64,000 nucleotides of DNA from Escherichia coli (lineage in GTDB: Bacteria; Pseudomonadota; Gammaproteobacteria; Enterobacterales; Enterobacteriaceae), in assembly GCF_002854065.1 (NCBI RefSeq), contig NZ_CP024147.1. One strand, written 5' to 3'. The position numbers were made by a program, and so were the translations under genes. Shown here piece by piece: positions 58,282 through 58,437 of this stretch (positions within the stretch are counted from its first letter, which is position 1; each line of letters opens with the position of its first letter). The notes below the pieces were generated by a model. It searched no databases and had not been told where the DNA came from. It saw nothing but the letters and a program-made list of their open reading frames with translations.

Positions 58282-58346
58282 ATTTCCTCCGCATGTTGCC
58301 CGGGCAATTCTAGAGTAGCGGGATCAGATGGCAATCGCTTATTGGC

Positions 58347-58368
58347 AAAATGACAATTTTGTCATTTT
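58347..58368. promoter_or_regulatory. CusR box palindrome AAAATGACAAttTTGTCATTTT
   Basis: Perfect 10-bp inverted repeat in the cusR-cusC divergent intergenic region. Confidence 0.6.
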
Positions 58369-58437
58369 CCTGTCACCGGAAAATCAGAGCCTGGCGAGTA
58401 AAGTTGGCGGTATAAAATCACCAGAAATTATGAGCCT

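Follow-up and report, generated by a model that had tools for sequence, protein, structure and literature searches.

The 64-kb stretch of Escherichia coli DNA analysed here (64,000 nucleotides, hereinafter designated the window) carries a perfect inverted repeat in the spacer between the divergent cusRS and cusCFBA operons. The locus raises the question of which regulator reads this palindrome, and whether the palindrome by itself is the whole of the regulatory element.

The divergent spacer and its palindrome

The cusR-cusC spacer spans 156 bp (58282-58437), from the cusR start codon to the cusC ATG at 58438. On the minus strand it is followed by cusR (57598-58281), encoding a response regulator of 227 aa (NF007346, 508 bits against a cut-off of 420), and by cusS (56166-57608), encoding the Cu(I)/Ag(I) sensor kinase (NF007345, 985 bits over residues 5-484 of a 484-aa ORF), whose coordinates are collinear with K-12. 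On the plus strand lie cusC (58438-59820, 460 aa), cusF (59844-60176) and cusB (60192-61415). All of these genes score above the NCBIfam curated cut-offs and the RefSeq annotation agrees, which bears out the cusRS and cusCFB identities given in the original prediction; genomes sharing the identical spacer annotate its neighbours as cusS, cusR, cusC, cusF, cusB and cusA. Judging by collinearity with O157:H7 PV15-279, cusA would start at about 61427 and run off the window end. The CusR protein encoded in the window is identical to K-12 CusR and matches TIGR01387, the heavy-metal OmpR subfamily (324 bits, above the cut-off of 279).

The left flank of the locus is variable among E. coli, since in PV15-279 the region upstream of cusS contains vgrG, a DcrB-related gene and an Rhs pseudogene, where the window and K-12 have nfrB and nfrA. 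In the window, nfrB (53779-56016, minus strand), just upstream of cusS, contains two in-frame stops, after approximately codon 390 and codon 602, and is thus a pseudogene; in the closest genome, strain 100416 (99.9% identical), nfrB is likewise annotated as a pseudogene with an internal stop.

The palindrome AAAATGACAATTTTGTCATTTT occupies 58347-58368 and consists of the arms AAAATGACAA (58347-58356) and TTGTCATTTT (58359-58368), 10 nt each and 100% complementary, separated by the 2-nt gap TT. Its core, ATGACA-ATTT-TGTCAT (58350-58365), has a 6-4-6 layout. The centre of the box at 58357.5 is 2 bp away from the spacer midpoint at 58359.5, leaving 65 bp on the cusR side and 69 bp on the cusC side, and both the perfect 10-bp repeat and its central position between the operons are therefore as first predicted.

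A palindrome of this kind is in itself only mildly unusual. The 64 kb contain two perfect inverted repeats whose arms measure 10 bp or more and whose gap is 6 nt or less, compared with a mean of 0.43 in composition-preserving shuffles; the second one, CCGGATGCGA-GTTT-TCGCATCCGG at 23643-23666, is G+C-rich. What is decisive is that a published 20-base consensus is matched without deviation, and at the locus where it is expected. The E. coli CusR palindrome is given as AAAATGACAAnnTTGTCATTTT in PMC11195947, with reference to Munson 2000 and Yamamoto & Ishihama 2005, and is placed there between cusRS and cusC(F)BA; a similar palindrome, TGACAAnnTTGTCAT, is noted at pcoE in the same source. The palindrome in the window agrees with this published sequence at each of its 20 specified bases; the original prediction had described it as matching the expected response-regulator site. 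The pattern AAAATGACAANNTTGTCATTTT matches 58347-58368 with 0 mismatches, and no second copy appears in the window with up to three mismatches permitted, a stringency at which 0.01 matches are expected per window from shuffles.

The spacer is carried by 5333 of 5426 complete E. coli genomes and is 100% identical to that of PV15-279 and 98.7% identical to that of K-12. A 181-bp alignment with K-12 contains two differing positions, 58369 and 58411, both outside the palindrome, and the K-12 CusR box has the same 22-bp sequence at the same locus. Position 58369, between the cusC-side arm and a further half-site described below, is C in the window and in approximately 63% of E. coli records and T in K-12. 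Position 58411, at the predicted cusC start, is T in the window and C in K-12, and the T creates TATAAA. Of 5237 E. coli records, 3291 share the 56-bp core at 58335-58390 with 100% identity, and nearly all others have one mismatch. A direct repeat (58370-58395 and 58495-58520, 77% identical) was taken as chance.

CusR binding and predicted promoter geometry

The binding data for this spacer come from K-12. CusR ChIP-chip yielded one chromosomal peak, located in the cusR-cusC spacer (bioRxiv 10.1101/2020.08.17.251918), and in gSELEX unphosphorylated CusR bound that spacer only (PMC8249747). Phosphorylated CusR is described as switching on both divergent operons via the box (PMC10920338). Activity of the cusC promoter was detected by Reg-Seq only with copper (2 mM copper sulfate), and copper induction is reported to depend on CusRS. 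A cusR deletion with phoB and hprR intact is reported to lose copper induction, both at the cus locus after its transfer to Salmonella and, in E. coli itself, at msrP. Because the box matches the consensus, lies at the orthologous locus, is accompanied by an identical CusR and has been bound in K-12, we regard the palindrome with great confidence as the operator of the OmpR-family response regulator CusR, with the promoter geometry outlined below and with shared use by PhoB and HprR. The feature is already known, being the orthologue of an experimentally defined K-12 operator, and the original prediction was right to call it not novel. It overlooked two minor points, a conserved third half-site and the sharing of the element with PhoB and HprR, and features of both kinds have been published before. 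The result confirms a standard and intact cus copper/silver efflux regulon with a textbook operator, and no new explanation is needed for the palindrome at the cus spacer.

In K-12, according to the literature, periplasmic Cu(I)/Ag(I) activates the kinase CusS, which in turn phosphorylates CusR. CusR then binds the single spacer site and activates both cusCFBA, encoding the efflux pump, and cusRS, through autoregulation; CusR shares this spacer element with HprR and PhoB.

The positions of both promoters rest on sequence conservation. The predicted cusC –10 element TAAAGT (58399-58404, plus strand) implies a start at about 58410-58412; a TAnnnT hexamer is found at this offset in all eight promoters compared below and at hiuH. 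The position of the cusC –35 element is occupied by CCGGAA, where 2 of 6 bases agree with the consensus; cusC thus has no usable –35 element, which points to a promoter that depends on an activator. The predicted cusR promoter (58307-58334, minus strand) combines the –35 element TTGCCA (58334-58329), a 16-bp spacer and the –10 element TAGAAT (58312-58307), with 10 of 12 matches in a promoter consensus scan and a start at about 58300. At the silR promoter, ATTCTA (the plus-strand form of TAGAAT) is found at the same 34 bp from the box. With these starts, the box centre would fall at approximately –53.5 relative to cusC and –57.5 relative to cusR. Databases presumably list the CusR box at –53.5 with respect to cusC, in agreement with this geometry. 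The cusR side contains two copies of TGGCAA (minus strand TTGCCA) at a distance of 14 bp, at 58329-58334 and 58343-58348; the first is the predicted cusR –35 element and the second borders the box on its left.

A third half-site in phase with the palindrome

Downstream of the box, TGTCAC at 58371-58376 (plus strand) forms a direct repeat with the cusC-side TGTCAT, 11 bp away, and constitutes a third half-site. Its conservation was assessed in eight promoters from six lineages, aligned ungapped on the box: E. coli cusC, silC, silE, three Providencia species, Schmidhempelia bombi and Shimwellia. The silC and silE promoters were found by protein homology to CusR, independently of the box, while the Providencia, Schmidhempelia and Shimwellia promoters were found in genome contigs by the box pattern AAATGACAANNTTGTCATTT, with cus linkage established by tblastn. 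The AAATGACAANNTTGTCATTT scan returned at least 120 loci, mostly from Collinsella, and the six cus-linked loci among the matches listed are neither a complete nor an unbiased sample of cus loci. Box conservation is circular for pattern-selected loci, and the third half-site and the –10 hexamer alone count as independent.

The third TGTCA is invariant in 8/8 promoters from the six lineages and is absent from every search pattern. All eight also contain a TAnnnT hexamer 22 bp past the third half-site (58399-58404 in the window), in the form TAAAGT at cusC and silC and TATAAT at silE. The conserved unit in this alignment is larger than the palindrome, comprising three half-sites and a fixed distance to the predicted –10 element, and it has a precedent in the literature.

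The precedent is AgrR of Cupriavidus metallidurans, a heavy-metal regulator related to CopR/PcoR, whose consensus is ATKACANNNNTGTMAT; AgrR requires a direct repeat in phase with the inverted repeat, and a further AgrR protomer beside RNA polymerase has been shown (PMC7380067). The cus core ATGACA-ATTT-TGTCAT fits this AgrR/CopR-type consensus, CusR belongs to the same TIGR01387 subfamily, and TGTCAC, 11 bp past TGTCAT, would provide the direct repeat of the AgrR type at cusC. By analogy with AgrR, the third half-site, at about –40 to –35 and in phase with the cusC-side arm, would probably hold a further CusR protomer beside RNA polymerase.

The plasmid-borne sil system offers a further comparison. 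SilR, a plasmid-borne paralogue, is 87% identical to CusR, and the boxes at silC and silE (IncHI2-type plasmids) differ from the 20 specified bases by one and four mismatches, respectively. Both promoters have the third TGTCA at +11 and the –10 distance found at cusC. Unlike the cusC box, the silE site (L123 18161-18182) lies downstream of silS and drives one gene. The Shimwellia pseudoproteus box (L058 5521-5540) stands after cusS and ahead of a DUF305 gene rather than in a cusR-cusC spacer, and was kept in the comparison as an independent promoter of the same design. In both the silE and Shimwellia cases the third half-site is present, a kinase gene lies upstream and a single small gene is driven; a DUF305 gene also follows silE on the plasmid.

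The E. coli hprR-hiuH box CATTACAAAATTGTAATG, in the second known target of CusR and HprR, resembles the cus box in being a 6-4-6 inverted repeat (ATTACA-AAAT-TGTAAT) in a divergent regulator/target spacer, and is bound by both HprR and CusR (PMC8249747). With a third half-site TGTAAG at +11 and TATCCT at +39, its layout is that of cusC. It differs in its half-site, TGTAA compared with TGTCA at cusC, and in its main regulator, HprR, which responds to HOCl/H2O2. The third half-site thus covaries with the palindrome half-site, TGTCA going with TGTCA in the cusC-type promoters and TGTAA with TGTAA at hiuH. Since the third half-site tracks the palindrome half-site, the comparison suggests that one protein reads all three half-sites. 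PhoB is present in all compared hosts, and conservation of the third half-site is not assignable to CusR over PhoB.

The pcoA promoter, with a PcoR/CopR copper box, has a different arrangement. Its proximal half-site itself lies 28 bp before the likely –10 element TAGATT, one helical turn closer than at cusC, and its +11 repeat is weak (TGTTTC), unlike TGTCAC at cusC.

On the cusR side, a fourth half-site in the 11-bp phase is absent in E. coli, where the position reads CAATA, and is present only in Schmidhempelia among the compared loci. The Schmidhempelia bombi operator (L069 5113-5162), ACATGACAGTTAAATGACAAAATTGTCATTTAACTGTCATGT, is palindromic over four half-sites, with an outer one at either end. 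On the cusC side, CAG at 58385-58387, between the third half-site and the predicted –10 element, is kept in 7/8 promoters and falls about 11 bp past the third half-site (AATCA, 58382-58386); CAG/AATCA may be a degenerate fourth repeat.

Alternative readings and the overlap with PhoB and HprR

One alternative is that the element mainly serves another OmpR-family regulator, PhoB or HprR, with CusR secondary. In gSELEX, HprR gave a single high peak at the cusR-cusC spacer and recognised the same sequence with a different affinity (PMC8249747). For PhoB, the middle and third half-sites form a Pho-box-like direct repeat, TGTCATTTTCCTGTCACC (58360-58377, plus strand), which is the published PhoB site of the spacer. 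In K-12, Fitzgerald 2023 gives the PhoB site at cusR/cusC as TGTCATTTTTCTGTCACC, with a ChIP-seq peak centre at 595521 (58359 in the window, given an MG1655 cusC start of 595600) and a cusC RNA level of 208 in wild type compared with 50 in a phoB deletion, an approximately fourfold drop; Yang et al. 2012 present PhoB ChIP-chip, reporter and EMSA evidence at the same spacer. We scored the repeat with a Pho-box position weight matrix (PWM) built from the other 58 Fitzgerald sites (leave-one-out). The window site reaches 14.3 bits and the K-12 allele 15.7, compared with a training median of 15.0, the difference between the two alleles being due to C at 58369 in place of the K-12 T. The repeat at 58360-58377 has the top Pho-box score in the 64-kb window on both strands, with the runner-up at 11.7; its two TGTCA-type repeats with an 11-bp period score like verified sites.

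In a classical pho promoter the Pho box replaces the –35 element, approximately 10 bp upstream of the –10 element. This layout is not found at cusC, where 22 bp separate the repeat from the predicted –10 element. As the repeat is about one helical turn too far from that hexamer, we do not file cusC as a classical pho promoter, PhoB binding being nonetheless published. The cus repeat shares the 11-bp TGTCA period of Pho boxes, but it overlaps the palindrome read by CusR, and its PhoB ChIP score is weak, 3 compared with 38 at pstS (Fitzgerald 2023). The cognate cusR gene adjoins the box and is autoregulated, and CusRS is needed for copper induction according to the literature. A primary role for PhoB or HprR is therefore improbable; both share the site with CusR without replacing it.

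The two remaining readings are still less probable. That the palindrome works as a hairpin in RNA or DNA, such as a terminator or a processing signal, would be in line with the RNA fold of 58340-58380 (–10.8 kcal/mol, z = –2.6), but this z is what any palindrome would give. The scan found no terminator-like site, the stem is A/U-rich, and the element lies upstream of both predicted starts and should stay untranscribed, all of which makes such a signal highly improbable. A palindrome arisen by chance, or an operator that belongs to an unrelated family (LacI type, for example), could draw on the generic inverted-repeat expectation of 0.43 per window and on the same 18 bases that many Collinsella genomes carry ahead of a LacI-family regulator gene. 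The Collinsella sites have a central CG, as is typical of LacI-type operators, whereas the cus box has TT; no LacI-family gene is near the box, and the expectation for an exact consensus match at the orthologous locus is 0.01. We consider this reading the most remote of all, and the Collinsella coincidence means that the bare palindrome is not specific to CusR; at the cus spacer, its locus, the cognate regulator and the K-12 data decide the assignment. At the Collinsella loci (L010 3560-3579 and most of the at least 120 loci), CGAAATGACAACGTTGTCATTTCG is accompanied by a nearby TAATGACAACGT about 100 bp upstream of the LacI-family gene, with a glycoside hydrolase family 1 gene close by; CGAAATGACAACGTTGTCATTTCG is probably an operator of the LacI type whose sequence happens to fit the pattern of the CusR box.

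With the palindrome assigned to CusR, the working unit at cusC may be a composite in which the inverted pair is joined by a direct repeat in the same phase and, at a constant distance of 22 bp, by the –10 element; its middle half-site would be common to two binding modes. We advance this arrangement tentatively and give it slightly less than even weight. PhoB binding and the AgrR precedent are already published. If the composite unit is correct, CusR or HprR would occupy the left and middle half-sites in head-to-head orientation, or extend to the third as a higher oligomer, and PhoB would take the middle and third in head-to-tail orientation. A single switch at the nucleotide level would then be the point at which copper, oxidative and phosphate signals cooperate or compete. 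The third half-site and the fixed –10 spacing suggest how an OmpR-family regulator that reads a palindrome puts a protomer beside RNA polymerase, and the layout would mark the physical overlap of PhoB and HprR cross-regulation with CusR.
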